Positions 1-18,915 of a DNA stretch of 64,000 nucleotides are shown here, piece by piece. The stretch is taken from positions 160,001-224,000 of the forward strand of contig JAWXAQ010000030.1 of assembly GCA_034439575.1 (NCBI GenBank), written 5' to 3'. Source of the DNA: Leptospira sp. Lineage in GTDB: Bacteria > Spirochaetota > Leptospiria > Leptospirales > Leptospiraceae. The notes beneath the pieces were generated by a model. That model worked only from the letters and a program-made list of their open reading frames with translations, searched no databases and was not told where the DNA came from. Position 1 is the first letter of the stretch. Each line of letters opens with the position of its first letter. The position numbers were made by a program, and so were the translations under genes.

Positions 1-932
1 TTTACATTTTTGCAGACTAGTGAAACTTCACGTGACAATTTAATTGTATTTTTTCCAGGTTCTTTATATAAAGATAGAACTACCGCATCCATTCCGTTAT
101 ATTTTGCTAAGGAATTTCTTTCTTTATATCTTTCGTTTATTTCTGAAAAAGATTCTAATGAAATATAACCATTATTTTCAAAACCCTTTACAATCATTTT
201 TCCTATATCAAAAACGGAATCATATTCACCAATCATCCGGACAGGGAGTTCTTTATTTCCGAAAGGCAATTGACCTGCTGGATAATTTTTGTTATTCGAA
301 TTGATTAGAGATTCCAATTCCATCGGTTGAATTCGATAAGCATTCATGCGATCTGGATCAATCTCAACAAAAACTTCCTTTTCGTAACCACCATTGAGTT
401 CAACGAGAGCGATGCCTTCTATACGCTCAAAATACATTTTAATATATTCGTTCACCCATGATTTTAACTTCTTCGGATCATTCAGTCCTTTAGAATAATA
501 TATTATTTGAATAAATGGTGTTGCAGTAGGATCAAATTTTGATATCATTGGTTTGGATGCTTCACTAGGTAAAGCATCTCTAATTAAATCCAATTTTTCT
601 CTAACTTCTAATAAAGAAAACTTCATGTCAGTTTCACTTTTGAACCTCAAGTGAACCTTTGATTTGCCTTCCATAGAATTTGATTCCGTTTTCTCAACAC
701 CTTGTATAGTTCCTACTAACTGTTGTATAGGCCTAGAAATAATATTATCAATTTCTTCTGGCGAAGCATTTGGAAATGATGTGACGATTAATAACTGAGG
801 AAAATCTAAGTTTGGCAAAAGACTCAAAGGAATTTCAAAAATAGACAAAAATCCAAAAATAGATACTCCAAAAAAAAACATCAAACTTCCGATTCTGTTT
901 TTAAGAATCTTTTCTGTTATTTTTAAAATCAT
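1..932 (-). CDS. RND efflux permease (AcrB/AcrD/AcrF-like), N-terminal part; runs off the window edge
   Basis: Not in the ORF track. Read by hand from ATG at 932: MILKITEKILKNRIGSLMFFFGVSIFGFLSIFEIPLSLLPNLDFPQLLIVTSFPNASPEEIDNIISRPIQQLVGTIQGV..., a typical RND TM1/PN1 start. ATGA overlap with the stop of the adaptor gene. Confidence 0.92.
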   Translation of the reverse strand, partial: MILKITEKILKNRIGSLMFFFGVSIFGFLSIFEIPLSLLPNLDFPQLLIVTSFPNASPEEIDNIISRPIQQLVGTIQGVEKTESNSMEGKSKVHLRFKSETDMKFSLLEVREKLDLIRDALPSEASKPMISKFDPTATPFIQIIYYSKGLNDPKKLKSWVNEYIKMYFERIEGIALVELNGGYEKEVFVEIDPDRMNAYRIQPMELESLINSNNKNYPAGQLPFGNKELPVRMIGEYDSVFDIGKMIVKGFENNGYISLESFSEINERYKERNSLAKYNGMDAVVLSLYKEPGKNTIKLSREVSLVCKNV

Positions 933-2431
933 TTAAATTTAGGATACACAGAGACGCCATCAAACATTCGATTGATGGGACCAAGAATTAAAATGTCACC
1001 AGCAATCAAACCATCTTTGATAAATATCTGGTTTTCTCGTTTATCACCTAATTTCACTTTCTTTTTGTATGCTTTTTTATCTTTCAAGATAAAAATATCA
1101 GCTTCGGAATCTTGGACACTAACGAGAGTATCGATCGGGATGCTAATTGCTTTTTCTTCATCACCAAGTAAGATTTCAGCTCTAACAAACATTCCTGGTT
1201 TTAATTCGTCTGTTTTATTGTCTAATTCAACTTTAGCTTCAACGGTATGCGTTTTTTGATCTACAAGAGGACTAATATTTTTTACTTTTCCTGTGAATTT
1301 TTTATTAGGTAAAGAATCGACTCTAACATTCGCTATTTGTTTTTTTTTAAGTTTACTTAGGTCATTTTCATTTATAAAAAAAGTGGCAAAAGATCCTTTG
1401 TAGGAAATAACTGTCATTATTGGAGCAACACCACCACTTCCAGCATTTACAAGCTCACCTAAGGAACGACTAACCTTCGCTACAACCCCTTCTATTGGGG
1501 AATAAAGCAAACATTCCTTTATTAACATTTCTGTAGATTTTATATTTATCTCACTTGAATTCAAATTGGCAAGAGCGACATCCAACTCAGCTTTTTCCGT
1601 CTTTGTATTTATTGTTTTCAACAATTCTATTTTTTCTTTTTTATTTTCTGGAATCGAATAACCTGCACTTACTATATCTTCATCTTTGATACCAATTAGA
1701 ATCATTTCCAGATCCCTTTTTGCGTTATTCATTAATAATTCTTTAGATTTTAAGTCTAATCTCAGATTCAAAATTTCTTCTTCAGAAATTGCTTTTTGAT
1801 TCCATAGGATTTCTTTTTTTGCAAGGATTTCCGAAAATCTTTGGAGTTCAAGATTTGAGCGGTTATAAGTAGCGATTCGTTTGTCAGCTTCACCTAACTT
1901 CATTTCAATATTATTTTTGGCATTCTGATATTTCACCTTGGTAAGTTCATACATTGCCATCGAAGATTCTTTCGCCGCTTTTTGTTTTGCTAAATCTAAC
2001 TCAAAAGTTAAACTATCTAATTTTGCTAATAACTGTCCTTTTTTAATTCGATCTCCTTCTTTCAAATAAATCTTTTCGATTCTTCCGCTCACTTTGGAAT
2101 GTACTTCCACTTTTTCTAATGGCTCAAGAACGGCCGAGAAAGATAAACTAGGTGTAATGATTTCTTCTTCCACTTTCTGAATTTCAACACTGACTCCAAG
2201 TGTTGTTAATTCATCAGTCTCATCTTTTATTTTGTTGAAATTTGAATATTGATTTAAAATCGAAAGATTCTTTGAATAAAACATTCGATTAAACAATGGT
2301 AATTTGGTTCTTAGACTATCCCAAGTTAAATTACTATATAACATAGAGATCAATAAATATATAACTGAGCTAATTACAACTTTTGAAAAAAAAGGAATTT
2401 TTCTCAAAAAATCAAATTTTTCTTTCAACAT
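929..2431 (-). CDS. RND periplasmic adaptor (membrane fusion protein) with unusually long alpha-helical hairpin
   Basis: N-terminal TM; lipoyl halves VHSKVSGRIEKIYLKEGDRIKKGQLLAKLD and LYSPIEGVV; C-terminal LKPGMFVRAEI; adjacent to the RND permease. Confidence 0.93.
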   Translation of the reverse strand: MLKEKFDFLRKIPFFSKVVISSVIYLLISMLYSNLTWDSLRTKLPLFNRMFYSKNLSILNQYSNFNKIKDETDELTTLGVSVEIQKVEEEIITPSLSFSAVLEPLEKVEVHSKVSGRIEKIYLKEGDRIKKGQLLAKLDSLTFELDLAKQKAAKESSMAMYELTKVKYQNAKNNIEMKLGEADKRIATYNRSNLELQRFSEILAKKEILWNQKAISEEEILNLRLDLKSKELLMNNAKRDLEMILIGIKDEDIVSAGYSIPENKKEKIELLKTINTKTEKAELDVALANLNSSEINIKSTEMLIKECLLYSPIEGVVAKVSRSLGELVNAGSGGVAPIMTVISYKGSFATFFINENDLSKLKKKQIANVRVDSLPNKKFTGKVKNISPLVDQKTHTVEAKVELDNKTDELKPGMFVRAEILLGDEEKAISIPIDTLVSVQDSEADIFILKDKKAYKKKVKLGDKRENQIFIKDGLIAGDILILGPINRMFDGVSVYPKFK

Positions 2432-3111
2432 ATTAAATACCAGTCAGGATTCCAAATACAAGATATACAAAAGATAAATAAGGAACGAGCCATGTGATTG
2501 CGGCTCTTTTTTTTGGTTTGTCCAAAATACTGTTTCGCTCCGAAAACAAATACTTTTGTTGATAGAAAAACAGAGACGATGAAGGCAATGATCCATACGG
2601 AAACAAGAATACTAAATAATACAACACTAACTCTATCATTGAATGGAAATATAGTATTCGCGAGATAAATCATAAGTAAACACATGATGATGCTACTCGT
2701 TGCATGAAGGCATAAACCTAAATGAGCTTTAAAATTTTGTCTTTCTTCCTCTAGCATAATAGCTGTAAGGTAACTAAAAGTAGATACGTATACAATCATA
2801 ATGATAAATGATGCTAAAACATACAAAACATTCCAAGGATAGGAATTTAAAAAAAGACTAAATTCGCTATAATTTTTTTCTTGGAAATTCAGCCTGAGAC
2901 CATCATTTAAATTTGAAAAATATGAATATCCACATAAAAATATGAATAAATACATCATCAGATAGAGCACAAAAGCGTACGAAAACATTTTTAAACCGAA
3001 ACCTAAAATTTCCTTGGGTGAATTTTTTGGAATATAATCTAACGAATTCTTTTTATTAAAGAGTAATCCTATCATTTTTTTGTGAAATGCAAAATTTATC
3101 AGATTTTTCAT
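2425..3111 (-). CDS. Multi-pass membrane protein (Yip1-like topology); 3' end probably frameshifted at an A8 tract
   Basis: Four hydrophobic helices in frame. A better fifth helix (RAAITWLVPYLSFVYLVFGILTGI*) lies in another frame after the T8 run at 2507-2514. Confidence 0.6.
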   Translation of the reverse strand: MKNLINFAFHKKMIGLLFNKKNSLDYIPKNSPKEILGFGLKMFSYAFVLYLMMYLFIFLCGYSYFSNLNDGLRLNFQEKNYSEFSLFLNSYPWNVLYVLASFIIMIVYVSTFSYLTAIMLEEERQNFKAHLGLCLHATSSIIMCLLMIYLANTIFPFNDRVSVVLFSILVSVWIIAFIVSVFLSTKVFVFGAKQYFGQTKKKSRNHMARSLFIFCISCIWNPDWYLIC

Positions 3112-3136
3112 ATATTTACCTTTAGATGATTTAATT

Positions 3137-3745
3137 TTATTTCATATATTCTAATTTACGTATATGATAAGAGGCGCGTTCCTTGATTCCCGCTTTTTCG
3201 TAAATATCTCTTAATTCTTTATGAGCTACCATAATTTTATCACTCTGATTTATAACGCGTTCAAAATACATGATAGTTTGAGAAACCTTTCCTGATTCAG
3301 CATTCAACTTTGCTGCCATGATCAAAAGGTCCAAATTCTCTGGATTGGTTCTTAATAAATCTTCAACTTCTTGTAAAATTTTAATTCTTTCTTTGCGAAT
3401 CACATATTCAGCCTTTAACTTAAGTAAATTTGCTTGAAAGCTGGAATTTGGATCTTCATACAGTTCTTCCAAAATCAATAATACCTTTTCGAAATTTCCT
3501 TGGTAGTATTCAATTTTCGCTAAATATAGAGGTATATCTGCATATTCTGAATTATTATTTTTTAATTTATTAAAATACTTTTTTGCATTTTCTAAATTTC
3601 CCTTAGCATATTCTATTTTTGCTTGGGTATATTCATTTTCACTTTTTCCCTTATTCTTTGCACAATGGCCAGAGGAGAAAATGATGAATAAGATAAGAAT
3701 AATTCTCAAAATTCGATTTGCTTTTCGCTTCATATCATCTAACAT
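3137..3745 (-). CDS. Tetratricopeptide-repeat protein, probable lipoprotein
   Basis: Basic N-region, hydrophobic stretch and Cys (FSSGHC); TPR-like helices (AKIEYAKGNLENAKKYF, LAKIEYYQGNFEKVL). Confidence 0.8.
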   Translation of the reverse strand: MLDDMKRKANRILRIILILFIIFSSGHCAKNKGKSENEYTQAKIEYAKGNLENAKKYFNKLKNNNSEYADIPLYLAKIEYYQGNFEKVLLILEELYEDPNSSFQANLLKLKAEYVIRKERIKILQEVEDLLRTNPENLDLLIMAAKLNAESGKVSQTIMYFERVINQSDKIMVAHKELRDIYEKAGIKERASYHIRKLEYMK

Positions 3746-4331
3746 TTTTTTTAAATTCGGATGCCAATGCTAATACAACTTTTCTAAGAGGATCTGAATG
3801 ACCAATAATCTGTTCATCAAAAGAAGAATTGATCATAAGAACGAGTTGGCCCATTTCATCAAAGACGTTTAAAAATATGAAATTTGAATCTTTGTTTTCT
3901 AATATTCTATCATTCGAATGTATAGATACTACACCTTGGATAAACAAATCTCTACCTTCGGAATTTAAGATATTTTTTATTTGCAAGGAATCTAAAAGTT
4001 TATCTTGAGAATTTAATGTTCCTAAACTTTCACCTACACTTTTTCTAAGACCAATGGGAAGATCCGACAAATTCATTTTTGATTTATCATTTAATAAATT
4101 TTGTTCACTAATATTCGAAGTATCATACCCTGAACTCATAAGCTCAAACATTAAAAGTTCTCTTAAATCCTTTGCGATGGATTTAGGTGTTTTATAATCT
4201 CTGTTAATGATGGAACCAAAGGTAATTTTTTTAATATTTTCTTTAGACAAAAGACTGCTTTTTACATTGTATTGATTTACTTTGCAAGTGACAAAAAAAG
4301 CAAACACCAATAAAGATAAACATACTCTCAT
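3735..4331 (-). CDS. Lipoprotein, possibly CsgG/LpoB/PelC-like alpha/beta fold
   Basis: Lipobox FFVTC; pattern IKKITFGSIIN...LRELLMFELMSSGY...DLFIQGVV resembles that fold (inference). Confidence 0.6.
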   Translation of the reverse strand: MRVCLSLLVFAFFVTCKVNQYNVKSSLLSKENIKKITFGSIINRDYKTPKSIAKDLRELLMFELMSSGYDTSNISEQNLLNDKSKMNLSDLPIGLRKSVGESLGTLNSQDKLLDSLQIKNILNSEGRDLFIQGVVSIHSNDRILENKDSNFIFLNVFDEMGQLVLMINSSFDEQIIGHSDPLRKVVLALASEFKKNVR

Positions 4332-6098
4332 TTATTTAGCCTCCATACTAAAATTAAAATGATTTGAAATCGATCTTTGATTCACATCTTTCGCAGAACT
4401 ATCAACAGTTATCAAATAATATGGATAACCATTAGGAGCATTATTAGATCTTAATAAATTAAAATCCCCTAAGGTATTTGCATCTCCAAAGGAGGAAGAA
4501 CCCTTACATGATGCCTCTAATTCTGCAAAAATAAGATCAATCACTCGACAACCGAAGGGATACACAGTCTGACAATCATTCCACGACCAACTTGCTAGTT
4601 GAATCACCGTGCTCGGTGGGGAGAGCCTTCTTAAACGTATTGCATTGACTACACTATTCAAATCCATATAATTGCTAAAAATTATTCTAAAATTATCTGT
4701 ATTTACATCCGCACAATCCGTGTTTGTTGCAATTGTTCCTCCACCAGTATCTCCCGAACGAAATCGATATGAAGCTGGAGACAAAACAGACAAACTACTA
4801 TCCCAAAAACAATTAGGCGATAACCAATCCCCGCCTGTATTACTTCCTGTTCCTGGAAAGTTGTTCGAACATCCTTGCGATTGGACACCTATTGCTTGTA
4901 TTGTAGGTGCTTCACTTATCGCACCACCAGCAATGAAACTATATGTCATTACAGAGCCCATAGGAATACCTTCAATCGAACTCGCAGATCCCCCAACTGT
5001 AACCACATAACGCTGCCCATATGATAATTTAGTATCAGGCGTAAATGTGTAAACTTTTCCATCCTCTGTCCAAATTCCATTTCCAATTATTGATGGAGAG
5101 ATAGAAATTTGACTTTGTGTTTGTGTCTGATTCATTTTCTTTGAAAAGGTAAAAATCATTGGATTAACGCTGGAGTTTCCTAAACATACATTCTCAATAG
5201 AAGTATTGATTATATTCTCTGAAATTCCATTGCCCTCTAAACATTCAGACAATGTGCCACGCGCTAAATGAATCGATTCTAAACTCGGCACTAAATTCCC
5301 AGTTCCCACAAGGAAACTACCCGAAGTGGGATTTTGAAATTTTACTCCCAAAACATCGGTCACATTGGATGAAATAGTAAAATTAATACGACTGTTATGT
5401 GCGAAAGCAGAATCTGGTTGAACTATTAAATTTGTTTCATTTTCCCAAGAATAAGTGGCAGAAAAATTTGGCGAAAAAACAAGACCACCACTGACTGATG
5501 TTTTATCCATAGGTCGTGAAAAATGAAAATTTAATTTGTTTGAATTTGGTGTCCCCATACAAACATTAATTAAATTTTCTCTTAAGATATTTTTTCTTTC
5601 AAAAGTATGATGATTACAATCTGATATACTTCCAGTTCCGACTGTGACAGTCAAAATTTCAGGAAAACTACCAGCCACATTGGTGTCTCCGATAGTAAAC
5701 GAAGCGGAGTAAAGTTCTTTTAAATCTCTCCCTTCTTTTGATTCACAATTCTTTGTTAGTGTATACGTATAGGTTCCATAATTCCATTGTGTACTTGGCG
5801 TAAAATCTAAACTATATTCATTTAAATCGTAAAAACCTTGGGTCGCAGGACTTATAGAAAAACTTTGGACACAACTATTTATATTCATAGGTCGATCAAA
5901 TAAAATTGTAATTTTCTGATTTCGTTTGAGACCTTTGTCACCCATACTTGGTATGGCTGAGGTGATTTTTGGCGCATCATCATCGCCCAAAAATGTTAAA
6001 AATTTCTCAGCATCTAGCTTATCATTTTTGCAATTGGTTAAAAAAAAATGGCAGATAATCAATAAAGAAAAAATATATATATTTAAAATTCGATGCAT
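4332..6098 (-). CDS. Lipoprotein with three bacterial Ig-like (Big_5-type) repeats and a Cys-rich C-terminal domain
   Basis: Start placed at ATG 6098 (GGAG upstream; track ORF starts at 6203). Lipobox FLTNC; repeated ILFDRPMN / FHFSRPMD / FTFSKKMN motifs with FTP..L..G..Y; many paired Cys. Confidence 0.82.
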   Translation of the reverse strand: MHRILNIYIFSLLIICHFFLTNCKNDKLDAEKFLTFLGDDDAPKITSAIPSMGDKGLKRNQKITILFDRPMNINSCVQSFSISPATQGFYDLNEYSLDFTPSTQWNYGTYTYTLTKNCESKEGRDLKELYSASFTIGDTNVAGSFPEILTVTVGTGSISDCNHHTFERKNILRENLINVCMGTPNSNKLNFHFSRPMDKTSVSGGLVFSPNFSATYSWENETNLIVQPDSAFAHNSRINFTISSNVTDVLGVKFQNPTSGSFLVGTGNLVPSLESIHLARGTLSECLEGNGISENIINTSIENVCLGNSSVNPMIFTFSKKMNQTQTQSQISISPSIIGNGIWTEDGKVYTFTPDTKLSYGQRYVVTVGGSASSIEGIPMGSVMTYSFIAGGAISEAPTIQAIGVQSQGCSNNFPGTGSNTGGDWLSPNCFWDSSLSVLSPASYRFRSGDTGGGTIATNTDCADVNTDNFRIIFSNYMDLNSVVNAIRLRRLSPPSTVIQLASWSWNDCQTVYPFGCRVIDLIFAELEASCKGSSSFGDANTLGDFNLLRSNNAPNGYPYYLITVDSSAKDVNQRSISNHFNFSMEAK

Positions 6099-6099
6099 T

Positions 6100-7824
6100 T
6101 CAATTCTCCAAATAAAATTCATATTCATTTTTTTTCTGATGACTCTTTGTTGTTTCATTTCCTTTTTGAAATGAATCATCTTGCGCTTTCGAAGATTTTT
6201 CAAATTGGTCTAAATAATAAGATAAAATAGAATTCCCATATCCTCGTTTAATTTCATATATGCGAAGTTCTTCCATGGGAATTCCCATCGCATAACTGCA
6301 ATCAAAACCTGATTCCATATAATTCAAAAGAGAACCAGCGTAATCTTCAATTACTTTCATTAATTCATGTTCAGACGTTATCAATTCAGATTCTTTGCTA
6401 AATCCATTTTTATACTTTAACTGAATTGTTTTCCAAGTTTCTAATGCGAATAGAAATTTTGAGTTTGATAATGAAAGAAGATGCCAAGCATCTTTAAGCC
6501 TCTCTTTTGATTTAAAAATCTCTGCTTTTATATTAACTTCTAACAGTTGCTTGCTTCTGATAGCATCCGATAATGCAATTTTTCCTTCATATATTTTTCT
6601 TGAGTAAGACAAATCATCAAATAAATTTAATGTATTACTATTAAAGGCATTTTCCCCCCTTCCGACAAATTGAGGTCCGAAACCTGGAATTCTTTGAATA
6701 CCCGTTCCGTCCGTCTGCACTCCAAAATTTGTATTTGTTTGGTTGGTACTGGAACCTAGTTGAGTTTGTATCGTAAAGTTAAATCCATAAACTTCATTTT
6801 TAACTGGTAACGTTCCATTTACATTTTCACCATAGTATCCACCTACTGATAGTTTTGGTTTCCAATAATTATCTGAAATCTCCTTTCTAGTTTTTAAATT
6901 TTGAACTGCAATATTTGATTTTTTGAATTCTGGCTTCTGGGTAAAGTCAATGTCCTCTTCATTATTTATACTTTCTGGTGAATAAAAAATATAATCTCGC
7001 AATAAAGAATCCTTTAATTGTATTTTTATTTCTAATGGTAAATTGAGTTGTTTTTTTAATTCTAATTCTGCTTGCTTTTTTGTCGATTGAGCTTTGAAAA
7101 ACAATAATTCAATCTCTTTGAGTTTATTAGATATTTCTAATAGTTGGATTTCAGTGAGGAAGCCTTGTTCCCTTTCTCTTTTACTATCAATAAATTGTTT
7201 ATATGAACGCTCGTATGAAATTTCTGCCGATAAAATCTTCAAATCCGATAATAGCAAAGAACAAAATGCCTTTCTTATTTCCAATGTCAATTTGTCTTTA
7301 ACGATTTTCCAATCTTCTTGGTTTAGAAGTTCCTGTAACTTAGCCGATTCTATTTCTAGAGAATTTTCTCCACCATCATATAACAATTGATTTAACTGAA
7401 TTCGAATATCATTATATTGACTGTCTGGTTGGTTGACATTTGCATTCTTCAGTCCGAAATAACTGAGGCCAATTCGTGGCAAATAATTGCGCCATTTTTC
7501 TGTGGCTATCATCTTGAAAACTTCACGGCGATCTTTTAAGCTAGCAAGGATTACACTATTTACAATGCCTATTCCTTCTGCTTCCGCCATATCAATAATT
7601 AAGAAATCACTTTTTATCTTTTCAACGGCATTTAAATTAGAAACAAAACCCAAGATTCCAAAAATCATAACTAAACTACCTTTCTTAAACCTAACAAAGT
7701 TCAAATTGATCTTTAATATTGGGGTCTGATAAATATCCATATCCTTGCCGAATAAGGTTTTATTAGTCAGAAATGTGCCGAAAAAAATTAGCCGCGAGCA
7801 AAATGTTTGCATAAAAGTTCGCAC
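6100..7824 (-). CDS. TolC-family outer membrane channel
   Basis: Two OEP repeats (NYLPRIGLSY...LNQLLYDGG; NYWKPKLSVGG) with long helices; same operon as adaptor and RND. True start probably downstream of 7824. Confidence 0.85.
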   Translation of the reverse strand: MRTFMQTFCSRLIFFGTFLTNKTLFGKDMDIYQTPILKINLNFVRFKKGSLVMIFGILGFVSNLNAVEKIKSDFLIIDMAEAEGIGIVNSVILASLKDRREVFKMIATEKWRNYLPRIGLSYFGLKNANVNQPDSQYNDIRIQLNQLLYDGGENSLEIESAKLQELLNQEDWKIVKDKLTLEIRKAFCSLLLSDLKILSAEISYERSYKQFIDSKREREQGFLTEIQLLEISNKLKEIELLFFKAQSTKKQAELELKKQLNLPLEIKIQLKDSLLRDYIFYSPESINNEEDIDFTQKPEFKKSNIAVQNLKTRKEISDNYWKPKLSVGGYYGENVNGTLPVKNEVYGFNFTIQTQLGSSTNQTNTNFGVQTDGTGIQRIPGFGPQFVGRGENAFNSNTLNLFDDLSYSRKIYEGKIALSDAIRSKQLLEVNIKAEIFKSKERLKDAWHLLSLSNSKFLFALETWKTIQLKYKNGFSKESELITSEHELMKVIEDYAGSLLNYMESGFDCSYAMGIPMEELRIYEIKRGYGNSILSYYLDQFEKSSKAQDDSFQKGNETTKSHQKKNEYEFYLEN

Positions 7825-7867
7825 TTTTTTCGCTTGTAACTGCTTACGAAAGTGTTAATACTTCCTT

Positions 7868-8575
7868 ATGAAGCAGGCACTCTACCTTTTTATGATTTGT
7901 TTTAGTCTCATTCCAATTTTTGGTGATGAAGTGGAAGTTGTGACATTTGTGCAAGGCAAAGCTAACCTCATTGGCAAAAAGACAAACACCGCCATCAAGA
8001 TTAACCAAGTTCTTAAAAAAGGTGATACCATAAAAACAGAGGATGGAGCTTGCGAAATCCAATTGGCCACACTCGCCACTGTACGCATGGAAAAATTTTC
8101 TTCCCTTTCCTTAGACGATATCTTAAATCCAAAATCAAAACAAACTAATGTTCGCTTGTTGTCTGGCAAATTATTTATCAAAGCTCATAAACATAACAAT
8201 GGTGGATCTCAAAAACTAATCGTATCTGCACCAAGTTATGTGGCGGGCGTTCGTGGAACTGAATTTATCGTTGCCAGTCCCGACGAAGGTGGAGTAAATA
8301 CTGAGCTAACATTGCCAGACGGAGTCTATGTCAATGAAGGAACTGTAGCTGTTATCGCTGAAGATAAAAAAGAAGTCGTTGTCAATGCGAATGAAGAAGT
8401 GGTTCTAAATGGCAAGGAACTCAAAAAACAAATTCTTGAACAATACGTAAAAGAAAAAATGCAAATATTTGAAAAATTAACGCAAATGAAAGAAGAAAAC
8501 TACAATCTGATAAAAGATCAATTTCAAAAGAACCAGCAACTATTGGATGATATGCGAGGCAAAAAAGATTTATGA
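7868..8575 (+). CDS. Exported FecR-domain protein (LipL45-like)
   Basis: Signal peptide; LKKGDTIKTEDGACEIQL, VAGVRGTEF and VYVNEGTVAV motifs; C-terminal coiled helix. Confidence 0.85.
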   Translation: MKQALYLFMICFSLIPIFGDEVEVVTFVQGKANLIGKKTNTAIKINQVLKKGDTIKTEDGACEIQLATLATVRMEKFSSLSLDDILNPKSKQTNVRLLSGKLFIKAHKHNNGGSQKLIVSAPSYVAGVRGTEFIVASPDEGGVNTELTLPDGVYVNEGTVAVIAEDKKEVVVNANEEVVLNGKELKKQILEQYVKEKMQIFEKLTQMKEENYNLIKDQFQKNQQLLDDMRGKKDL

Positions 8576-9480
8576 AACGCCTAATTCTAGTTTTAAGTTT
8601 AATATCAGTTTGTATTTTTGCAAAAGGCGAAAATGACATTCGACCTGTTCATACCTATGCATTTTTGGCTTTAGAAGAAAATACTGAGTCCATAGAATTA
8701 CTACAATTTCTTAGAAATCAAATTTTTAGTTCAAAACGTGGTGAAATTGTCCATCAAACAAATCTTAGTATTGATTCTAATTTATTAAAAATGACGGATA
8801 CTGGTGTGTATGATATCAGTTTATTAAATAAAGAAACTCAAGTCTTAGGCGCTGAAAAATTAATTTTAATAAAGTCATCAAACACAATTACACAAATACA
8901 ATTGTTAGATTTAGAAACTGGTAAATTAGAATATAAAAATTCACTTCCTGAATCGATCCAAAAAACATTAATACAAGATTTTTATTCCTTCCTAGATAGA
9001 AAAAATATTTACCTTGCCATATCCGAAAAAAAATCTTCACCCTCTTCTCCTGTTAAATTTTCCTCTCTAAAATCAAAATATGTTGTTGGGGAATCCATTC
9101 GTTTTGAATTAGAAGCAAATGAAGATAACTTCATCTACGTTTTGTTAGTTCCTGAGAACAAAGGCGAAGAGCCTGTCCTTCTTTTCCCAAATCCAAATCA
9201 AACTGCAAATTATTTAAAAAAAGGGGAAAAGATTACGATTCCAGAAGGCTTAAATTCGCTTAGAACAGTTTCACCTTACGGTCGTGATAAGATTAAAGCC
9301 TTTGCATCTAAGGATGCATGGGATGAATTTCAATACAAAAATCGAAAAGGTGAATCCTTTTTCAAATTATTGCCACCAGCTCTCACTGGATCAAAATCCA
9401 TTGTCGTTACTGATCTTACTTCAAAATTAATTTCGAATACAAATGTAGCAGAATGGGAGATTCAAATTTCACCGAATTAA
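8572..9480 (+). CDS. Exported DUF4384-domain protein with an N-terminal CsgG/TolB-N-like region
   Basis: Signal peptide; YVVGESIRFELEANEDNFIYVL...LLFPN...ITIP...PYGRDKIKAFAS is the DUF4384 pattern; ATGA-coupled to the FecR gene. Confidence 0.8.
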   Translation: MKRLILVLSLISVCIFAKGENDIRPVHTYAFLALEENTESIELLQFLRNQIFSSKRGEIVHQTNLSIDSNLLKMTDTGVYDISLLNKETQVLGAEKLILIKSSNTITQIQLLDLETGKLEYKNSLPESIQKTLIQDFYSFLDRKNIYLAISEKKSSPSSPVKFSSLKSKYVVGESIRFELEANEDNFIYVLLVPENKGEEPVLLFPNPNQTANYLKKGEKITIPEGLNSLRTVSPYGRDKIKAFASKDAWDEFQYKNRKGESFFKLLPPALTGSKSIVVTDLTSKLISNTNVAEWEIQISPN

Positions 9481-9490
9481 ATTCATAAAA

Positions 9491-11272
9491 TTAGAAACCA
9501 AATATTTCAGTATTTGTGATATAATCAGGAACTCCCACACCAGAGAGTCCACCTAAGACCATGATTTTACCATCTGGTAAAACTAATAGTTTATGCCCTT
9601 CCCTACCCTGTTTGGTGGCATTCAGAACGAATCCATCTATTTCTTGTTTGGTCCAATTTTTTTCCACATCTGATAATACGGATGAAGAAGAAGAAACATT
9701 CCCACCTTGAATGAGAAAATTTCCATCAGGTAAAACTGCACCCGCATGATCAATTCTGCCCTTTGCCATATAATTATGCAAAGAAACTTTATTCGTAACA
9801 ACATCTAACTTTTGTATGATGTCAGTAGATAGTGATCCAGATCTACCCCCGATCAGATAATGATTCCCAGAACTATCTTTGAGTGCCACCATCATATCTT
9901 GTGCTACAATCAAATCGGGGCCAGCCGAAAAACTATCATTTGACGGATCAAAGATTTCAGTTGTTAGACCAGAACCACCCACAATCCAAAAACGTCCATC
10001 TGGTAAGGCCAAACATTGGTGGTTCATCCGAGATGTAGACATACTGGTTATAGATTGAATGGTTCCACCACCTGATCCATTCAAAGTAACAATTTCGGAA
10101 GTGGCTACCGCAGAACCCGTATTTGTTGTGCGACCACCTGTAATTAAAATTCGATTTGTAGCAATGAGGCAAGATCCATGACCTATTCTCGCACTACTAA
10201 GTGTTGGTCCATTGCCCCAAGTTCCTGTTGTCGGATTATATATATTTGTGCTATTTGTGATTGAACCCGTCAAATTCGTCGTGAATCCACCTGATAATAA
10301 AATTCTATCATCTGTTGTTTTTGATAGATTTGCAAATCGTCTTGCAATCGTTAAATTATTGTCTGCTTGAAAAGATCCCGTTACGTGGTTCCACCTTTCG
10401 ACAAAAAGTAAAGCCGCCGCACTCCCGCTAATGACACCAAGTCCTCCGATGACGAGAGTATCTCCATTTTGCAATGTCGCAATTTGAAAGTCCCTTCGTC
10501 CTCTACTCAAACTAGGTCCATCTGTCCATCCTAATATCCGATAGCTGAGAGTATTTTCTAATGGATTACCAGCTAAATCTTTTATACCAGATATTTTTAA
10601 ACTGAGACTACCGCCCTGCCTTGGATGTGTCCCTTGCCAAAAAATGCGCACAGAGGTCTCACTCAGTTTAGCAATGTTTCTAATCGTTAAACTGCCACCC
10701 GCAGAATTTGAAATTGTATAATTAGTTAATTGATCTATGCCCGTGACACTTTCATTAAAATTTAAATCAAATTGATTTGTTAAAAACACAGATATATCAT
10801 AAATTCCTGAAGGGAAGTTAGCAGTTACATTTGGTGAAAGTGTATCAATCGTAAACGAAAATTCTAGATCATCGCGAATCATTCCTTCACGATCAACTAT
10901 ACCATTCAATTTTATCTTCAGGACTCCAGCGACTAAATCTTCCTCTGATAAGATTCTAATTTGATTTTCTGCAAGATATTGGATTTTAAATCCAGATTGG
11001 GTGGCTGTGTCGAGTGATGATAATTGAGTGTAAGTAATCACATCAGAAACGCTTAAACTCGGAATTTTATAACCTAAGGGGCAGTCAATTTGAATGGAAC
11101 TCCATTCCTTTAAATAGGAATCGGATGAAGGCAAAGCCTTACATGTGTTATTTGATGCATTTGAAATATGAATCCCGAGTTCACCTAACAATAGATCGGA
11201 ATTTTTATTATTCGAATTTGGGACTTTGCAATTACAGAATATAAAAATAATCAGAAATAAAACTCTATTCAT
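9491..11272 (-). CDS. Ig-like + kelch-repeat beta-propeller lipoprotein (paralog 3)
   Basis: Lipobox IFCNC; FNESV and IKDLAGN Ig-like motifs; kelch repeats (LQNGDTLVIGG, LPDGRFWIVGG, LPDGKIMVLGG). Confidence 0.88.
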   Translation of the reverse strand: MNRVLFLIIFIFCNCKVPNSNNKNSDLLLGELGIHISNASNNTCKALPSSDSYLKEWSSIQIDCPLGYKIPSLSVSDVITYTQLSSLDTATQSGFKIQYLAENQIRILSEEDLVAGVLKIKLNGIVDREGMIRDDLEFSFTIDTLSPNVTANFPSGIYDISVFLTNQFDLNFNESVTGIDQLTNYTISNSAGGSLTIRNIAKLSETSVRIFWQGTHPRQGGSLSLKISGIKDLAGNPLENTLSYRILGWTDGPSLSRGRRDFQIATLQNGDTLVIGGLGVISGSAAALLFVERWNHVTGSFQADNNLTIARRFANLSKTTDDRILLSGGFTTNLTGSITNSTNIYNPTTGTWGNGPTLSSARIGHGSCLIATNRILITGGRTTNTGSAVATSEIVTLNGSGGGTIQSITSMSTSRMNHQCLALPDGRFWIVGGSGLTTEIFDPSNDSFSAGPDLIVAQDMMVALKDSSGNHYLIGGRSGSLSTDIIQKLDVVTNKVSLHNYMAKGRIDHAGAVLPDGNFLIQGGNVSSSSSVLSDVEKNWTKQEIDGFVLNATKQGREGHKLLVLPDGKIMVLGGLSGVGVPDYITNTEIFGF

Positions 11273-13025
11273 ATGAATATTCTTCTATTTGAGAGATAAA
11301 ACTTGCACTACTTCCACCTATTAAGTATACCTTCCCATTGGGCAAGATAACACCCGTAACATCTATCCTTGGGAATAACAGGCGGTTTCCTAATGTGAAA
11401 CGATTTGCATTTGGATCGTAATAGTCTATTTTTGGAACATAAGATCCATCTGCTTCACCACCAAACAAAACAGTTTTTCCTTCAGAAAAAGTGATACTTC
11501 CAAACTTAGATCTCGGCAATGAAAAACTAGTTGCTGTTCCAAAACTACCTACAGTAGGAATATAAATTTCTGATGTGTTCCCACCTCCAAAAACAAAAAT
11601 TTTTCCATTCGACAATTCTCGAACAAAAAAAGATGATCTTCCAAAAATTAAATCGTAATTCGTAGAGATAGAAAAGGATTCCAAAGTCTCATCAAAAATT
11701 TCTGTTTTATAAATATATTCATCACTCAACAATTTTTTTAAGCCACCAAAAAGGTAAACTTTTCCATCAGATAACCTCTGTAACACAAAATCCCTTCTTT
11801 CGAAATTCATGTTATTCCCATTTGCTAAAGTGTTGGTTACAGGATTAAAAATTTCTGTCGTGGAGGTACTTAAAAAAGGAGATGAATTTTCGACTTCTAT
11901 ACCACCAGCAATCAATACCTTTCCATTCGATAATAATATGGCAGAATGATCCATTCTAGCTCTAGATAAAAATGGACCATTTGAAAACATTTCTGTCGAT
12001 GGGTCAAAAATTTCTGTGTTATTTATCGCATCTGTGGCACTTTGTGTAGTATTTTTATCTCCACCAGCAAAAAACACCTTTCCGTCTTGTAACAAAGTCG
12101 CAGTATGCCTTCGCCTAGCGGTAATTAAATTTCCAACGGAACGAGTCAATTTCGTTTCTGGATTATAAATCTCGGCTGTATTAGTAACGCCTGTTGCTGT
12201 TACACCTCCCGCAATTAATATTTCCCCAGTTCTTAAAATTACGACAGATGCTCCTGAACGCGCAGTGATAAGATTTCCGGATTGTTTAAATCCATAGACT
12301 TGGAATTGTAAAACGGAAGAATGTATCAAATTGCCAGCAGTATCTTTTATATTTGTGACACTAATCTTTAAGATTCCACCGCTACTAGAGGGCAAACCAG
12401 TATAAAACAAACGATAGTTATTTGACCGAATCCTAGTCACACTCGACAATCGTAGATTTCCAGTCGCAGTTCCAGAAATTGAATAATTATCCAATAACTC
12501 CGCACCATTCACACTTTCATTAAATAATAAATCCAAGTATCCAGAATTAAAAAAACTAGTGTCTAAAATATTTCCATAAACACTCGTTAGAGTCGGTGCC
12601 GAAGGATCAAAAACAACATCAATGGATTCAGGATATATCGACTTTCCGACTAAGGTTGCTAATTTGGTAAAATCAATCTTATAGGTGGCCGCAATAGCAG
12701 TATCTCGAAACGAAATGGAAATTTTAAAATTATCCATCTGCTCCCAATTTACTTCATCTTCTACACTATTTTGATTTTTAGAAACAGAAACATGATTCTG
12801 AAATTGGTTTGTGATGATAGGTTCAGAAAAAGTAAAACTAATGTTACGAGATGAAACTGGCCGACTTACATCCAAATCGGCATTCACCTTGATTTGCGGT
12901 CTAAGTAAAAAATTGCCAATCTCACCGACAAATAATTTGTCCAAATTCTCATTTTTTGAACCGCCGAGAATATTGCAGGCATTAATGAATAAAAATGAAA
13001 TGAATATCCTAAAAAAATTATTCAC
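11265..13025 (-). CDS. Ig-like + kelch-repeat beta-propeller lipoprotein (paralog 2)
   Basis: Lipobox FINAC; FNESV and IKDTAGN; kelch repeats (RRRHTATLLQDGKVFFAGG, RMDHSAILLSNGKVLIAGG). GTG start. Confidence 0.9.
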   Translation of the reverse strand: MNNFFRIFISFLFINACNILGGSKNENLDKLFVGEIGNFLLRPQIKVNADLDVSRPVSSRNISFTFSEPIITNQFQNHVSVSKNQNSVEDEVNWEQMDNFKISISFRDTAIAATYKIDFTKLATLVGKSIYPESIDVVFDPSAPTLTSVYGNILDTSFFNSGYLDLLFNESVNGAELLDNYSISGTATGNLRLSSVTRIRSNNYRLFYTGLPSSSGGILKISVTNIKDTAGNLIHSSVLQFQVYGFKQSGNLITARSGASVVILRTGEILIAGGVTATGVTNTAEIYNPETKLTRSVGNLITARRRHTATLLQDGKVFFAGGDKNTTQSATDAINNTEIFDPSTEMFSNGPFLSRARMDHSAILLSNGKVLIAGGIEVENSSPFLSTSTTEIFNPVTNTLANGNNMNFERRDFVLQRLSDGKVYLFGGLKKLLSDEYIYKTEIFDETLESFSISTNYDLIFGRSSFFVRELSNGKIFVFGGGNTSEIYIPTVGSFGTATSFSLPRSKFGSITFSEGKTVLFGGEADGSYVPKIDYYDPNANRFTLGNRLLFPRIDVTGVILPNGKVYLIGGSSASFISQIEEYSYE

Positions 13026-14811
13026 TTATTTTTATCCTTTGGACTGGATTTTCCCCAGTGATCACTAAAATATCTGTTTTGCTAATTTGGTGAATGCTTG
13101 TACAGGTGCTTCTGTAGTTAAGTGCTCCGACCGTATAAATCCTGTTATTCATTAAATTTAGTGATTCCAGTGAATAAGAATTTCCTCCATCTGTATTCCC
13201 ACCAATAGCTAAAATATGTTTATCATTCCAAAAAGAAAAACCAGCCAGATACCTTTGTTCCGAAAAATTACCAACTAAGGAAACACTTCCATCCTTTGCT
13301 ATCTTTTCAATTGCTGTAATCTTATCTAAATTTCCTCCGCCTAATATATAATATTCATTCTCTCCATATTTTAAAACCGTATGGAGTCGACGTGTATTTA
13401 GAAGGGTCGAAGATTCATTAGTGCCAACAGCAATTGTTGGATCGTACCATTCAAAGGTATTGGCATGAAAACTTTGACTCAAAATTCCCCCTGTGACAAG
13501 GATCTTTCCATTAACACCTGCTACTACGTCAAGTCCATCACGTCCACTTGCTAAATTGCGGACATTTTCAAAGGTATTGGAGGCAAGTAAATACCGATCT
13601 ACACGACTTAAATAAGCGAGGCTATTTCCGGCGGCAGGAGTCCCACGACCACCAAGTATATATAAATTGCCATCCACACCAAATGCAGATTTATGACCGT
13701 ATCTAACTTGGGCAGGTAAAGTGCCCGTGACGGGGGACTGAATTTCTTCTGGGTCTAAAATTTCAAAGTCACTTAAAAAATTTGTTAGGTTACTTGAAGG
13801 TCCTTTCAGTCCAGCGACAACGATTACCTTTCCATTAGACAAGAGGTTCGCTGTAAAATCCGATCTGGATTGGTTAAGAGAAAAGGCATAATTCGAAAAT
13901 TGATTTGTACTCGGATTAAAAACTTCAATACTGGAGATAGTGACCGCTGGATTTGAATTTGGTTCTATGCCACCTATAATCATAATATTACCATTATTCA
14001 ATGTGACAAGCCTCGGATAACAACGATTTGTATTCAAATTACCAAGAGATTTAATCATTGGTTGGTAATAGTCGTAAGTTTTTTTGCTTAAAGTCTCTCC
14101 TGCTTTGTCAGTAATATTTGTTAGTGTGAGAGATATTTTTGTATAAGATAGATATGGTTTGCCTGACAATACGAGTCTGTACTCATTCGCACTCAATGAC
14201 AAAACATTAATGATTGCCACCTCATTTGCCATGGGTTCAGAAAAAGAATAATTCTCCTTAATACTTGCTCCATTTACTGGTTCTGAAAATTTGATATCAA
14301 GAAATCCATCATCGAGAAAGGAAGGAAAGTCCCCGTCATTAAAATTCAAAGTGGCCGTTGGAGATTTTCTACTTATCACATAACGTAATCTAAACGACTT
14401 GTTTTCTTCCCCGAATTTCCCCATATATTTATGATCTGAAATAAGCAGAAAAAATTCACCTTCTTCTGGTTCCCCTTTAAAAACAAGAGTGATATCTTTT
14501 TTACTTTGTTCATTGAATTCAATAATTTCTAAACTTCCTTTTGCCTCACCTTCGATTGTGAAATCGTTCCGAGTCATAATTGAAACGATGGGATAGGGAA
14601 ATTTAATTTTTAATTCCGTAAAATTTGTGAGGACCGATTCAACTTCTGGCGTCGATGAAATTGACGGTTCTATATTTAAGTTTACAATTTCTGAGGCAAG
14701 TGCATTTAGCAGTTTATTGTTTTGATTTGAGTCATTCATCGAACAACATAAATTCAAAAATAGGAATGTACCAATGTATATCTTAAAAACGGTACTCATA
14801 AACAAATTCAT
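13018..14811 (-). CDS. Ig-like + kelch-repeat beta-propeller lipoprotein (paralog 1)
   Basis: Lipobox LNLCC; FSEPV and ITDKAG; kelch repeats (LNNGNIMIIGG, LLSNGKVIVVAG, VDGNLYILGG). Confidence 0.88.
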   Translation of the reverse strand: MNLFMSTVFKIYIGTFLFLNLCCSMNDSNQNNKLLNALASEIVNLNIEPSISSTPEVESVLTNFTELKIKFPYPIVSIMTRNDFTIEGEAKGSLEIIEFNEQSKKDITLVFKGEPEEGEFFLLISDHKYMGKFGEENKSFRLRYVISRKSPTATLNFNDGDFPSFLDDGFLDIKFSEPVNGASIKENYSFSEPMANEVAIINVLSLSANEYRLVLSGKPYLSYTKISLTLTNITDKAGETLSKKTYDYYQPMIKSLGNLNTNRCYPRLVTLNNGNIMIIGGIEPNSNPAVTISSIEVFNPSTNQFSNYAFSLNQSRSDFTANLLSNGKVIVVAGLKGPSSNLTNFLSDFEILDPEEIQSPVTGTLPAQVRYGHKSAFGVDGNLYILGGRGTPAAGNSLAYLSRVDRYLLASNTFENVRNLASGRDGLDVVAGVNGKILVTGGILSQSFHANTFEWYDPTIAVGTNESSTLLNTRRLHTVLKYGENEYYILGGGNLDKITAIEKIAKDGSVSLVGNFSEQRYLAGFSFWNDKHILAIGGNTDGGNSYSLESLNLMNNRIYTVGALNYRSTCTSIHQISKTDILVITGENPVQRIKISE

Positions 14812-16159
14812 ACCGATTGGCTTGGTGATTGGTTAATGTCGAATAAGGAGAACTATCTCTTCGCATGGTAAAGTTAAATTTCTGATTTGATTCTATAGCT
14901 TTGTATGGAAAGAGAGCCAAATCTGCGAGATTCCATAAATAAAATAAACCTAACAAGAGTGATGTTTGTTCAAATCGAGTTCTAGTTTCTTCTAAGGCAT
15001 TTTGTTTCGGTTCAAGTAAATAACTATTGATGATAAATGATTCGCCGAAACGCGTACTAGGTGGTATTCCCACAAAAGAAGAATATTCATCTTTGGCATT
15101 TCTATACTGCACATAAGATTCTACGGTCGCTAGTAATAAAATCCCCGCAATTCCCATATACACTTTACCTTTGTTAGAATCGCCTTGATAGTATTGGCCC
15201 CAACCAGGATATAGAATAGAGCGAATCCACACAGCTTCACGGTTTTGAACAACAATCGGAACATCCGCCAAACTTACGTCAGGGTTAGTTGGGAATGATA
15301 AAACCAAATCACCAGATTTTTCACCAAAGTATTTTGTATAAGGTTTTTGTTGTTTATTTTTTCTCACTGACCAGTCTTTCACGGCAGCAGTAATGTAATT
15401 TTCTACTTCACTGAATGTTACTTGTTTATCGCGATTCACATCAGCTCTACCTTCGAGTGCATAAATTAAAAATTTTGTAAATACACCATAAGAACTTTCA
15501 TCATCTTCATAACTAAAAAAACCAGCTTTTGTAGAATATAAAATTCCGAATATTTCTCCGTCTAAATTATCTTTGACACGAAGCGTATTTGTATTTGCAT
15601 TTTTAGAAGTGAACATAGCGTCTCGACACGCATCTAAAAATAAAATTGAGTTTTTTATACCTCTAAGACTAATTTTTTCAACTACGCTTTCTACCGACAA
15701 AGACGAGTTAAATGGTTTTGAAAGTACAGAATCTTGAGTGAGTAAATATCCTTTTTCTTCGTAATCTGATACTCCGTGACCAGAAAAGAAAAATACGAAA
15801 AGATCTTCTGGATTAGCATTTGATAATAGTGAATCCAATTTTTCTTCTATATTCAGTTTGGTGGGAAATAAAGAATCAGGATCATCCTTTGGATTCATTT
15901 CATCTGTCATAATCACGACAGAATCAAATTCACCGTTTTGTACTAAAATTTTTGCGATTCCTTTGGCATCATTTCTTGCTTTTTTTAAATCATTCAAACC
16001 CACATCTTTGTATTCGTTGATTCCGATGATAAGGGCTATCCGTTTTCCCGATTGTTTTTCCCCAGCTGAGATTCCTTTGTTTTGTGGTTCGGAATAAAGA
16101 CTACAAATATTGCCTAATAATAGTACAAAAATGGAGAGGTGAATCAATAATACAAACAC
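14783..16159 (-). CDS. Exported caspase-family (peptidase C14, ortho/metacaspase-like) protease with a C-terminal membrane module
   Basis: KRIALIIGINEY...NDA; catalytic dyad FFFSGHG (H128) and FLDACR (C178); YGVFTKFL; C-terminal RSILYPGWGQYYQG + TM helices; GTG start with signal peptide. Confidence 0.93.
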   Translation of the reverse strand: MFVLLIHLSIFVLLLGNICSLYSEPQNKGISAGEKQSGKRIALIIGINEYKDVGLNDLKKARNDAKGIAKILVQNGEFDSVVIMTDEMNPKDDPDSLFPTKLNIEEKLDSLLSNANPEDLFVFFFSGHGVSDYEEKGYLLTQDSVLSKPFNSSLSVESVVEKISLRGIKNSILFLDACRDAMFTSKNANTNTLRVKDNLDGEIFGILYSTKAGFFSYEDDESSYGVFTKFLIYALEGRADVNRDKQVTFSEVENYITAAVKDWSVRKNKQQKPYTKYFGEKSGDLVLSFPTNPDVSLADVPIVVQNREAVWIRSILYPGWGQYYQGDSNKGKVYMGIAGILLLATVESYVQYRNAKDEYSSFVGIPPSTRFGESFIINSYLLEPKQNALEETRTRFEQTSLLLGLFYLWNLADLALFPYKAIESNQKFNFTMRRDSSPYSTLTNHQANRYEFVYEYRF

Positions 16160-16211
16160 GGTAGGGCCTTAATCTCAAGTTTCCAGTGCTAGCTTTTTTT
16201 TCCACAAAATC

Positions 16212-16239
16212 TTGCAAAAACTACATACTAGTTTATAAA
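16212..16239 (+). promoter_or_regulatory. Putative sigma70 promoter giving a near-leaderless transcript
   Basis: TTGCAA-16 nt-TATAAA ending 8 nt before ATG 16248; no Shine-Dalgarno. Confidence 0.45.
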
Positions 16240-16247
16240 AGTAGATT

Positions 16248-16445
16248 ATGAACCGTATACTCAAAATCTCATTTCTTATCTTCTTACTTGTTTCGGGCGC
16301 TCTCCTTTGCAAAAAGGATGATAAAGATAAAGACAAAAATAGTTTAATACTATTCGGTATTCTATTGAGCCGGGCTTCTTCATCTGCTGCATGTAACCCT
16401 CAATCTGGTTTTACAATTTGTATACCACAAGGAATCGCGGAATAG
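16248..16445 (+). CDS. Small lipoprotein (65 aa) with a C-terminal Cys pair
   Basis: Signal + C-KKDDKDKDK + second hydrophobic stretch, a typical leptospiral lipoprotein N-terminus; C-x8-C near the end. Confidence 0.7.
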   Translation: MNRILKISFLIFLLVSGALLCKKDDKDKDKNSLILFGILLSRASSSAACNPQSGFTICIPQGIAE

Positions 16446-16447
16446 AT

Positions 16448-18801: not shown

Positions 18802-18824
18802 GGAAATAGTCTGACAGATTCATT

Positions 18825-18851: not shown

Positions 18852-18915
18852 AATTTGAAATAATTAAAATTCTCTTTCGCCTTTCCAGTAGAGCTTAGAA
18901 AAATATCTCTGGTTT

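Follow-up and report, generated by a model that had tools for sequence, protein, structure and literature searches.

A Leptospiraceae-wide TolC-RND operon linked to TIGR04388 giant proteins, and two separable envelope modules beside it

We analysed a 64,000-nucleotide stretch of a Leptospira sp. genome (GenBank assembly GCA_034439575.1, contig JAWXAQ010000030.1; in our numbering G000:C30:160001-224000), hereafter the window, with particular attention to the gene set at positions 1–16159. The G000 assembly comprises 4.11 Mb in 37 contigs and is 99.98% complete. Positions 1–16159 are tiled by exactly 13 open reading frames (ORFs) of at least 190 amino acids in three strand blocks: an exported caspase homologue with three kelch lipoproteins (Module A), a FecR/DUF4384 pair (Module B) and an operon for an RND-family pump (Module C). 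We conclude with high confidence that three separable envelope modules, each inherited on its own, have come to lie side by side here in a lineage-specific manner. Module C is a Leptospiraceae-wide operon of eight genes, encoding a TolC-family factor, a lipoprotein with three immunoglobulin (Ig)-like Big_5 domains, a small lipoprotein, a TPR lipoprotein, a possibly Yip1-like membrane protein, an adaptor and two permeases (RND1 and RND2). It is probably coupled to a giant protein of the TIGR04388 family, which escaped a preliminary, sequence-only description of this DNA because its gene lies left of the window.

Module C and the giant were followed through a family survey of 114 genomes (G000 included; g1 denotes the home genus), and 46 loci around caspase or Big_5 matches were fetched and compared by tblastn with 20 G000 proteins; four further G000 loci, holding other matches to the caspase or to its DUF5683-like tail, were kept apart from this set. 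The giant adjoining the window (2324 residues, C30:147823-154797) follows RND2 after a 150-bp gap, has no Pfam domain and matches TIGR04388 (Lepto_longest) with 192.3 bits against a cut-off of 45, over model positions 3–638 of 1693. The Big_5 lipoprotein was matched in 83 of the 114 genomes (17/22 in g12, 13/24 in g13 and 2/5 in g4), and TIGR04388, in the family-wide search, in 77. Among the matches listed, 70 genomes have both, and in 50 of them the two lie on the same contig within 25 kb; in 19 of the remaining 20 the genes sit on separate contigs, many of them broken off within the giant gene, and in one (G077) they are 125 kb apart. The arrangement varies by group, with the giant directly after RND2 in g1, approximately 8 kb downstream in g13, and upstream and divergent in g12, in G007, in G082 and on the L. 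weilii plasmid. The operon-plus-giant locus is also present in relatives of L. biflexa. In g13, both genes are found in one and the same set of 13 of 24 genomes, and the ten g12 genomes with a Big_5 match at E ≤ 1e-90 are exactly the ten with a TIGR04388 match at E ≤ 1e-92; neither gene was matched in G025, G027, G028, G032 and G038, also of g12. Pump and giant subtypes co-vary as well, the short Big_5 type occurring with giants of ~1970 residues and the long type with others, suggesting direct recognition between pump and giant. That the linkage is kept in seven genera despite three different gene orders speaks for a functional tie, and we consider it likely that Module C is functionally coupled to the TIGR04388 giant.

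The window edge cuts Module C, with position 1 lying inside the RND1 gene, and the operon genes within the window are all on the minus strand. The first encodes the TolC-family outer membrane factor (6100–7824; PF02321 (OEP), 76.9 bits in two stretches) and is colinear in all pump loci inspected; the second encodes the lipoprotein with three Big_5 Ig-like domains (4332–6203; Big_5, 95.4 bits in three stretches). The listed starts of both frames are probably too far upstream, because homologues align only from positions ~73 and ~36, respectively, and the probable starts lie near 7668 and 6098. These genes are followed by a small, LIC10494-like lipoprotein of 198 amino acids (3735–4331; NF033169, 64.1 bits versus a cut-off of 70) and a TPR lipoprotein of 202 amino acids (3137–3745; TPR-type Pfam matches), the positions of which are conserved across pump loci. 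The fifth product, of 228 amino acids (2425–3111), had been described as Yip1-like. Its multi-pass membrane nature stands, with about five hydrophobic segments, and the Yip1 identity less firmly so: Pfam gave no match at E 0.01, the Atlas feature score to Yip1-named clusters was 0.92, and the L. weilii counterpart reached 24.2 bits for Yip1 (PF04893) versus a cut-off of 28.6.

The remaining genes form the pump proper. The sixth encodes a membrane-anchored RND adaptor of 500 amino acids with a long insert between its lipoyl halves (929–2431; TIGR01730, 197.3 bits versus a cut-off of 94.9; HlyD_D23, 102 bits). RND1 has 1024 residues, the first 310 of which are encoded in the window (3–932; ACR_tran, 194.6 bits, partial); the full protein (L006:9858-12932, minus strand) scores 645.3 bits for ACR_tran over residues 9–1016 and has about 12 hydrophobic segments. 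RND2 (972 amino acids; C30:154947-157865, left of the window) is divergent, and its gene overlaps the RND1 stop codon. The best match of both permeases among solved structures is E. coli MdtB, with 266 bits for RND1 and 82.4 bits for RND2, the latter aligning mainly over its first 375 residues with a second weak stretch at 737–884. At the acidic pair of transmembrane helix 4 (TM4), which belongs to the proton relay, RND1 has Asp-Ser opposite the Asp-Asp of MdtB; the TM4 region of RND2 falls outside its alignment, and its transmembrane half is barely alignable to any solved RND protein. A full-length permease, an RND-type adaptor and a TolC-family factor, the components of a tripartite RND system, are all matched at the sequence level. 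No ABC exporter gene was found by family scans among the 13 window genes, RND2, the giant and the four ORFs downstream of it, and a reading of Module C as a type I secretion system was rejected for lack of an ABC gene at the locus.

Further pump genes were observed elsewhere. Current annotation describes the operon no further than as TolC, an Ig-like protein, a lipoprotein, a hypothetical protein, an adaptor and two permeases. G000 itself holds a second colinear eight-gene copy at C32:5784-18609 (L085), with 48–67% identity. An AAA_21 gene, a Mutator-type transposase fragment and a HigB/HTH pair come before this copy, and its contig ends 386 bp past RND2. The window contains one more full-length RND permease gene (31421–34489, minus strand; 24% identity to RND1), and nine further full-length (>50% coverage) RND1 matches occur in G000 outside both operon copies.

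The giants themselves have the layout of exported, modular proteins. A signal-like segment opens 20 of 20 aligned giant N-termini and, judging from sequence, the family combines a predicted Sec signal with a conserved coiled-coil and glycine-rich N-terminal part of ~1500 amino acids and a variable C-terminus. In a model of the N-terminal 700 residues (predicted local distance difference test (pLDDT) score of 68), very long helices (e.g., 171–257 and 519–618) accompany a small sheet; hydrophobic stretches made of small residues abound in the middle part of the giant. Between the two G000 giants, identity is 39% over residues ~104–1500 and the sequences diverge beyond; for the G058 giants the match reaches no further than about residue 1644. 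A search of the giant sequence against the PDB returned nothing below E 0.45.

Several giants carry recognizable C-terminal domains. The G000 paralogue (C13:11828-18631, L086) has PT-HINT at 1561–1700 (86.1 bits) and a weak Lipase_3 match at 2116–2149, and is followed by an ORF encoding a 312-amino-acid ankyrin-repeat protein (10886–11824); this giant runs off its contig end and probably joins C32. The L. weilii giant also carries PT-HINT. The G058 giant after RND2 (5931–14309, minus strand, in L011 = G058:C1:2855032-2875031) has 2792 amino acids and a C-terminal Peptidase_M23 domain, and is followed by an overlapping 219-amino-acid ORF and then a second giant. PT-HINT was matched in 60 of the 114 genomes, and at least 19 TIGR04388 open frames carry it (paired by contig and frame length). 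Consistently, the large L. interrogans protein LA_3725 is described, in the part of the source consulted, as having an N-terminal transmembrane segment and a pretoxin HINT domain (PMC4751964). The PT-HINT, M23 and lipase-like ends, together with the variable C-termini, indicate that the TIGR04388 family behaves like polymorphic toxins, and the small ORFs after the giants are putative immunity-like genes.

Four same-strand ORFs of 236, 664, 255 and 187 amino acids follow the window-adjacent giant (C30:143655-147902; L008:1655-5902). The 236- and 255-residue products have lipobox-like starts, the 187-residue product a plain signal-like start, and the 664-residue product no hydrophobic N-terminus; the 236-residue ORF overlaps the end of the giant gene, the position expected of an immunity gene. 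None of the four has a credible Pfam or NCBIfam match. For the giant's own C-terminus, the ESM Atlas gave no usable match, and a Pfam search with E values up to 10, extended to the two ORFs that follow, gave nothing credible. In G009, a region of 35 kb (C2:292093-326379) holds at least ten PT-HINT matches in frames of 400–600 amino acids and has the look of an orphan toxin cassette array; neither TIGR04388 nor Big_5 was matched in this genome.

These observations suggest, as the most likely mechanism, a two-step route. Sec would first export the giant to the periplasm, where the machine formed by RND1/RND2, the adaptor and TolC, aided by the Yip1-like protein and the three lipoproteins (Ig, TPR and small), would capture it and hand it on to the outer membrane or across it, to be displayed at the surface or released as an interbacterial toxin. 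G000 contains no type VI secretion system (T6SS) sheath gene, and its single match to ShlB is partial (25.5 bits) and lies away from the locus; with no ABC exporter at the locus either, export by a two-step pump is the simplest reading. The complete chain, from separable modules through coupling of Module C with the giant to two-step deployment, builds on observed domain content, synteny and phyletic co-occurrence, from which we infer physical interaction, transport and toxicity, and we place it somewhat below an even chance. The same holds, approximately, for the narrower proposition that the coupling consists in export or deployment. Its most specific form, in which the eight-gene operon would be a dedicated, RND-powered machine for secretion or surface deployment of Sec-exported TIGR04388 polymorphic toxins in interbacterial competition, is offered more tentatively still. 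The preliminary description had also proposed a macromolecular cargo, rather than drugs, for a pump with four accessory genes; given the conserved TIGR04388 partner, this part of it probably holds.

A number of points weigh against deployment of the giant by the pump. The substrates known for RND pumps are small molecules, lipids and metals, and we know of no experiment or structure that ties an RND pump to protein export. Foldseek comparison of the giant N-terminal model with the PDB returned generic long coiled coils (PrgA, SMC, TolC) at E ≥ 0.08 and no solved fold, and the window-adjacent giant has no credible PT-HINT or toxin domain match in Pfam even at E 10. Linkage is also imperfect: pump and giants are separated by 125 kb in the near-complete G077, and no giant follows RND2 within the 3–10 kb fetched in G074, G070 (contig C5), G067, G053 and G060. 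Because pump and giant are accessory and sometimes plasmid-borne, part of their co-occurrence could reflect co-mobility, and because the genomes are related, the counts overstate the number of independent events. As for the counts themselves, the family search for TIGR04388 scored three giant candidates per genome and missed some giants, and the genus-level distance counts, those between pump and giant as well as those for 38 genomes of g1, rest on coordinates transcribed by hand into scripts.

The alternative that survives best, which we nevertheless regard as unlikely, is that Module C pumps a small molecule, lipid or metal and that its tie to the giant is functional but indirect, the protein itself not being transported. 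The pump could, for example, protect the cell from envelope damage by its own toxin, remove by-products, or remodel the outer membrane so that the giant can be anchored. Such a role would suit permeases and an adaptor that are bona fide RND-type (ACR_tran 645 bits, TIGR01730 197 bits), a best solved relative that is a drug pump subunit (MdtB), and toxin C-termini that, where seen, target the envelope (M23 peptidase, lipase-like). It accounts less well for the four extra exported proteins conserved in the operon across genera, which are unusual for a substrate pump, and for the subtype co-variation, which points to direct recognition.

It is less probable again that pump and giant are mere co-residents of an accessory island or plasmid and that Module C is an elaborate but ordinary efflux operon. 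Copies do occur on the L. weilii plasmid, on a 75-kb replicon of G068 and, in contig C32 of G000, beside a transposase fragment and a toxin-antitoxin pair, and pump and giant lie 125 kb apart in G077. However, the linkage holds up in seven genera under at least three different arrangements, at 22–60% protein identity, presence and absence agree exactly in g13, and in g1 the chromosomal site is stable, with the same flank gene in G054, G053, G077, G058, G067, G074 and G000.

The preliminary description had reported 13 contiguous genes in three blocks, all encoding exported or membrane proteins with no regulator or cytoplasmic enzyme, and this gene-level picture is borne out. A hydrophobic signal-like or membrane segment opens all 13 proteins, seven of which have a cysteine straight after it in a lipobox-like setting (judged by eye), and no regulator or cytoplasmic enzyme family was matched among the 13 in Pfam and NCBIfam. 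Pfam also confirmed the earlier domain calls (caspase, three kelch, FecR, DUF4384, TolC, Big_5, TPR, adaptor and RND), and the two proteins with no Pfam match are the 198-residue lipoprotein and the 228-residue membrane protein of Module C. Proteins of the locus matched the Leptospira-specific NCBIfam models LIC11435, LIC10494, Lsa33, LipL45 and TIGR04388. A promoter and terminator scan of 1–17000 found fewer sites than in shuffled sequence.

The further claim that the 13 genes constitute one system fails in the 114-genome neighbourhood and phyletic comparison, in which the three blocks are mostly unlinked and independent, the outcome that the preliminary description had itself named as refuting. 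The caspase was matched in 58 of the 114 genomes, including 38/40 in g1, 0/22 in g12 and 0/5 in g4; the two matches among 24 g13 genomes are weak and to other proteins. Within g1, caspase and Big_5 genes lie within 15 kb of each other in only 4 of 38 genomes and 33 kb apart in one, and are on different contigs in the other 33. All three blocks are contiguous solely in G000, G058, G067 and G074 among the 46 loci compared. Complete assemblies (e.g., G054, G044, G062, G063 and G068) place the caspase on a ~270-kb replicon and the pump on the main chromosome. Eleven loci of the genus hold the caspase and three kelch genes with nothing else of the set in the 15–35 kb fetched downstream, on contigs of 81–273 kb, eight of them 262–273 kb long (230 kb in G078 and 81 kb in G076).

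Partial arrangements complete the picture. In G052, the caspase, the three kelch genes and DUF4384 occur and no pump lies within 26 kb. In G053 and G077, pump and FecR sit beside the same flank gene and the caspase and kelch genes are missing, DUF4384 persisting as remnants in G053 and being gone in G077. FecR and TolC are 24 kb apart in G070 (C5 ~22679-47114; joined L046+L009+L010), a gap that may be an insertion. Outside g1, the pump operon stands without caspase, kelch, FecR or DUF4384 in 9 of 9 loci (two each in g12, g13 and g4, and one each in g8, g10 and g3), and block 1 and block 2 genes are likewise absent alongside the L. weilii plasmid operon and the C32 copy of G000. Block 1 is thus an independent unit, which in one small clade came to lie between DUF4384 and the flank gene.

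A single platform, in which kelch receptors, a processing or signalling caspase and assisting FecR and DUF4384 proteins are assembled by the pump, is accordingly very improbable: the contiguity in G000, G058, G067 and G074, the joint absence of caspase and DUF4384 from G053 and G077, and the caspase gene adjoining a TIGR04388 gene on contig C219 of G002 speak for it, but adjacency is confined to 4 of 38 genus genomes, caspase and kelch genes occupy a separate replicon in complete assemblies, pump and giant occur in g12, g13 and g4 without this caspase, and the joint loss can be attributed to one deletion of contiguous genes. The G002 arrangement (C219:1904-7004) consists of a caspase homologue of 42% identity back-to-back with the TIGR04388 gene and is the sole caspase-giant adjacency seen outside the G000 clade. 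The caspase as processing protease of the giant was considered and rejected, given this one adjacency and the giants of g12 and g13 that occur without this caspase. Nothing was found that would give the caspase, the kelch proteins or the DUF4384 protein a role in the pump.

Module B neighbours Module C in this genus only, and the two are divergently transcribed. It comprises an exported FecR-domain protein of 235 amino acids of the LipL45/Lsa33 kind (7868–8575, plus strand; PF04773, 48.5 bits), which matched the NCBIfam models Lsa33, Lsa19 and LipL45 below their cut-offs, and an exported DUF4384 protein of 302 amino acids (8572–9480, plus strand; PF14326, 53.3 bits). DUF4384 orthologues occur in 38/40 g1 genomes and, since no more than 6 kb separates them from the Big_5 gene in 33 of 38, Module B travels with Module C in this genus; the pair adjoins the pump operon in g1 and not in other genera. 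The order in G054 is flank gene, DUF4384 and FecR, followed by the divergent TolC, a short Big_5 protein, a lipoprotein, ORFs of 199 and 204 amino acids, the adaptor, two RND permeases and the giant.

Module A opens with the exported C14 caspase homologue of 458 amino acids (14783–16159, minus strand), which consists of a signal peptide, a caspase domain at ~40–290 and a DUF5683-like C-terminal helical hairpin at ~307–416. Peptidase_C14 (PF00656) matches residues 39–273 with 89.1 bits versus a gathering score of 21.4. The dyad residues H128 (SGHG) and C178 (DACR) are invariant in 13/13 aligned orthologues; with its His-Cys dyad intact, the protein is a predicted protease. An AlphaFold2 model (pLDDT 76) was closest in Foldseek to the MALT1 paracaspase (E 3e-16) and the yeast metacaspase Yca1 (E 2.5e-11). 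The conserved tail carries a PGWGQ motif and forms a helical hairpin at 328–416 in the model, which suggests that the caspase may be a periplasmic protease tethered to the membrane. Two other assignments were discarded: the EACC1-associated type of conflict-system protease (NF047832), at 78.2 bits versus a cut-off of 140, and an outer-membrane β-barrel signal for the tail, which is modelled as a helical hairpin with merely two low-confidence terminal strands.

Downstream on the same strand lie genes for three kelch-propeller lipoproteins, of 597 amino acids (13018–14811; Kelch_1, 67.9 bits; lipobox-like N-terminus), 586 amino acids (11265–13025; Kelch_6, 89.7 bits) and 593 amino acids (9491–11272; Kelch_6, 58.9 bits). 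They had been described as Ig-plus-kelch proteins; the kelch part applies to all three, and the Ig part comes down to a single sub-threshold Big_5 match in the N-terminal part of the second (19.2 bits versus a cut-off of 23.6). Orthologues of the first kelch lipoprotein come after the caspase in 16/16 genus loci inspected, and kelch genes occupy this position in g1, g7 and one g8 locus. In other genera (g14, g6 and g8; loci L056, L059, L060, L064, L066 and L025), the caspase is followed by a gene for an Lcl_C lectin-like protein, an NHL propeller with a He_PIG Ig domain, or a LapA-domain protein of 1461–2870 amino acids, and in L059 a 1227-amino-acid WD40 protein is encoded directly upstream. 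A constant caspase whose partner swaps between genera fits a protease with interchangeable extracytoplasmic binding partners. The earlier notion of variable propellers thus survives for the caspase, which is accompanied by variable binding proteins (kelch, NHL, Lcl_C and LapA-type), and loses its link to the pump. Among the titles and abstracts screened, no report of a Leptospira caspase-kelch unit was found. To the right of the caspase, at 16418–22805, lie a pair of ORFs that fall into no Pfam family (414 and 380 amino acids), the first being the conserved flank gene, followed by genes for a PMT_2 glycosyltransferase, a DCC1-like thiol-disulfide oxidoreductase and an M3 oligopeptidase.

Even on a conservative view, annotation gains from this analysis: a tempting 13-gene 'system' is split into three units of different history, a family-wide eight-gene operon is defined, and an exported caspase is seen to change its propeller or lectin partners. 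If the pump does deploy the giant, it would represent the first case of protein export by an RND-based system and would account for the delivery of polymorphic toxins by Leptospira, both saprophytes and some pathogens, without the usual type V, VI or VII (T5, T6, T7) machinery, and the route would sometimes be carried on plasmids of pathogenic species. Our literature search found no paper on TIGR04388, and none, supplementary neighbourhood tables lying outside its scope, that ties TIGR04388 or PT-HINT proteins, or any polymorphic toxin, to an RND/TolC operon. Likewise, the searchable portion of the text of Zhang et al. (2012; PMC3482391) does not contain the words Leptospira, TolC, RND or efflux.

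Among known systems, Module C is most like MdtABC-TolC and MuxABC-OpmB, in which an adaptor is followed by two tandem paralogous RND permeases that work with a TolC-family duct. With MdtB as the best solved match of both permeases, the pair resembles two-permease pumps of the MdtBC type. The permeases are nevertheless unlike the MdtB and MdtC equivalogs of NCBIfam, RND1 scoring 288.4 versus 1584 (MdtB) and 296.4 versus 1774 (MdtC), and RND2 scoring 96.6 and 88.5 bits with the MdtC and MdtB models, below their cut-offs. Module C also departs from MdtABC in that genes for four additional conserved proteins, exported or membrane-bound, separate TolC from the adaptor, and in its linkage to a giant toxin-like gene. 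In E. coli, MacAB-TolC takes the Sec-exported enterotoxin STII from the periplasm to the outside, to our knowledge the only precedent for two-step export through a tripartite TolC pump. It differs from Module C in being ABC-driven, in having a cargo of 48 residues as opposed to more than 2000, and in working without accessory lipoproteins.

The giants resemble polymorphic toxins such as CdiA and Rhs in their lineage-specific N-terminus, Sec signal, PT-HINT domain in many members, variable C-termini and small ORFs that follow. Unlike CdiA and Rhs, they are not linked to any T5, T6, T7 or type IX (T9) component, and their conserved neighbour is the RND/TolC operon. The nearest analogue in logic is the TANFOR class of Bacteroidetes, whose toxins, in the part of the source consulted, likewise depend on Sec and have an export route deduced from their gene neighbourhoods (PMC7073777).

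The Module A protein is like orthocaspases and metacaspases in having a p20-type domain with a His-Cys dyad, its fold being nearest to MALT1 and yeast metacaspase. Bacterial C14 caspase homologues accompany propeller, TPR or DUF4384 modules, according to the sections consulted of three reports (PMC7475262, PMC6426788, PMC8283722). The Module A caspase differs in being exported and, probably, hairpin-tethered, and in having as partners separate lipoprotein genes that vary from genus to genus. Finally, the Module B FecR protein resembles LipL45, Lsa33 and Lsa19 in having a FecR domain behind a signal peptide, and differs from all three in falling below their NCBIfam cut-offs, in being paired with DUF4384, and in its divergent placement next to the pump in g1 only.

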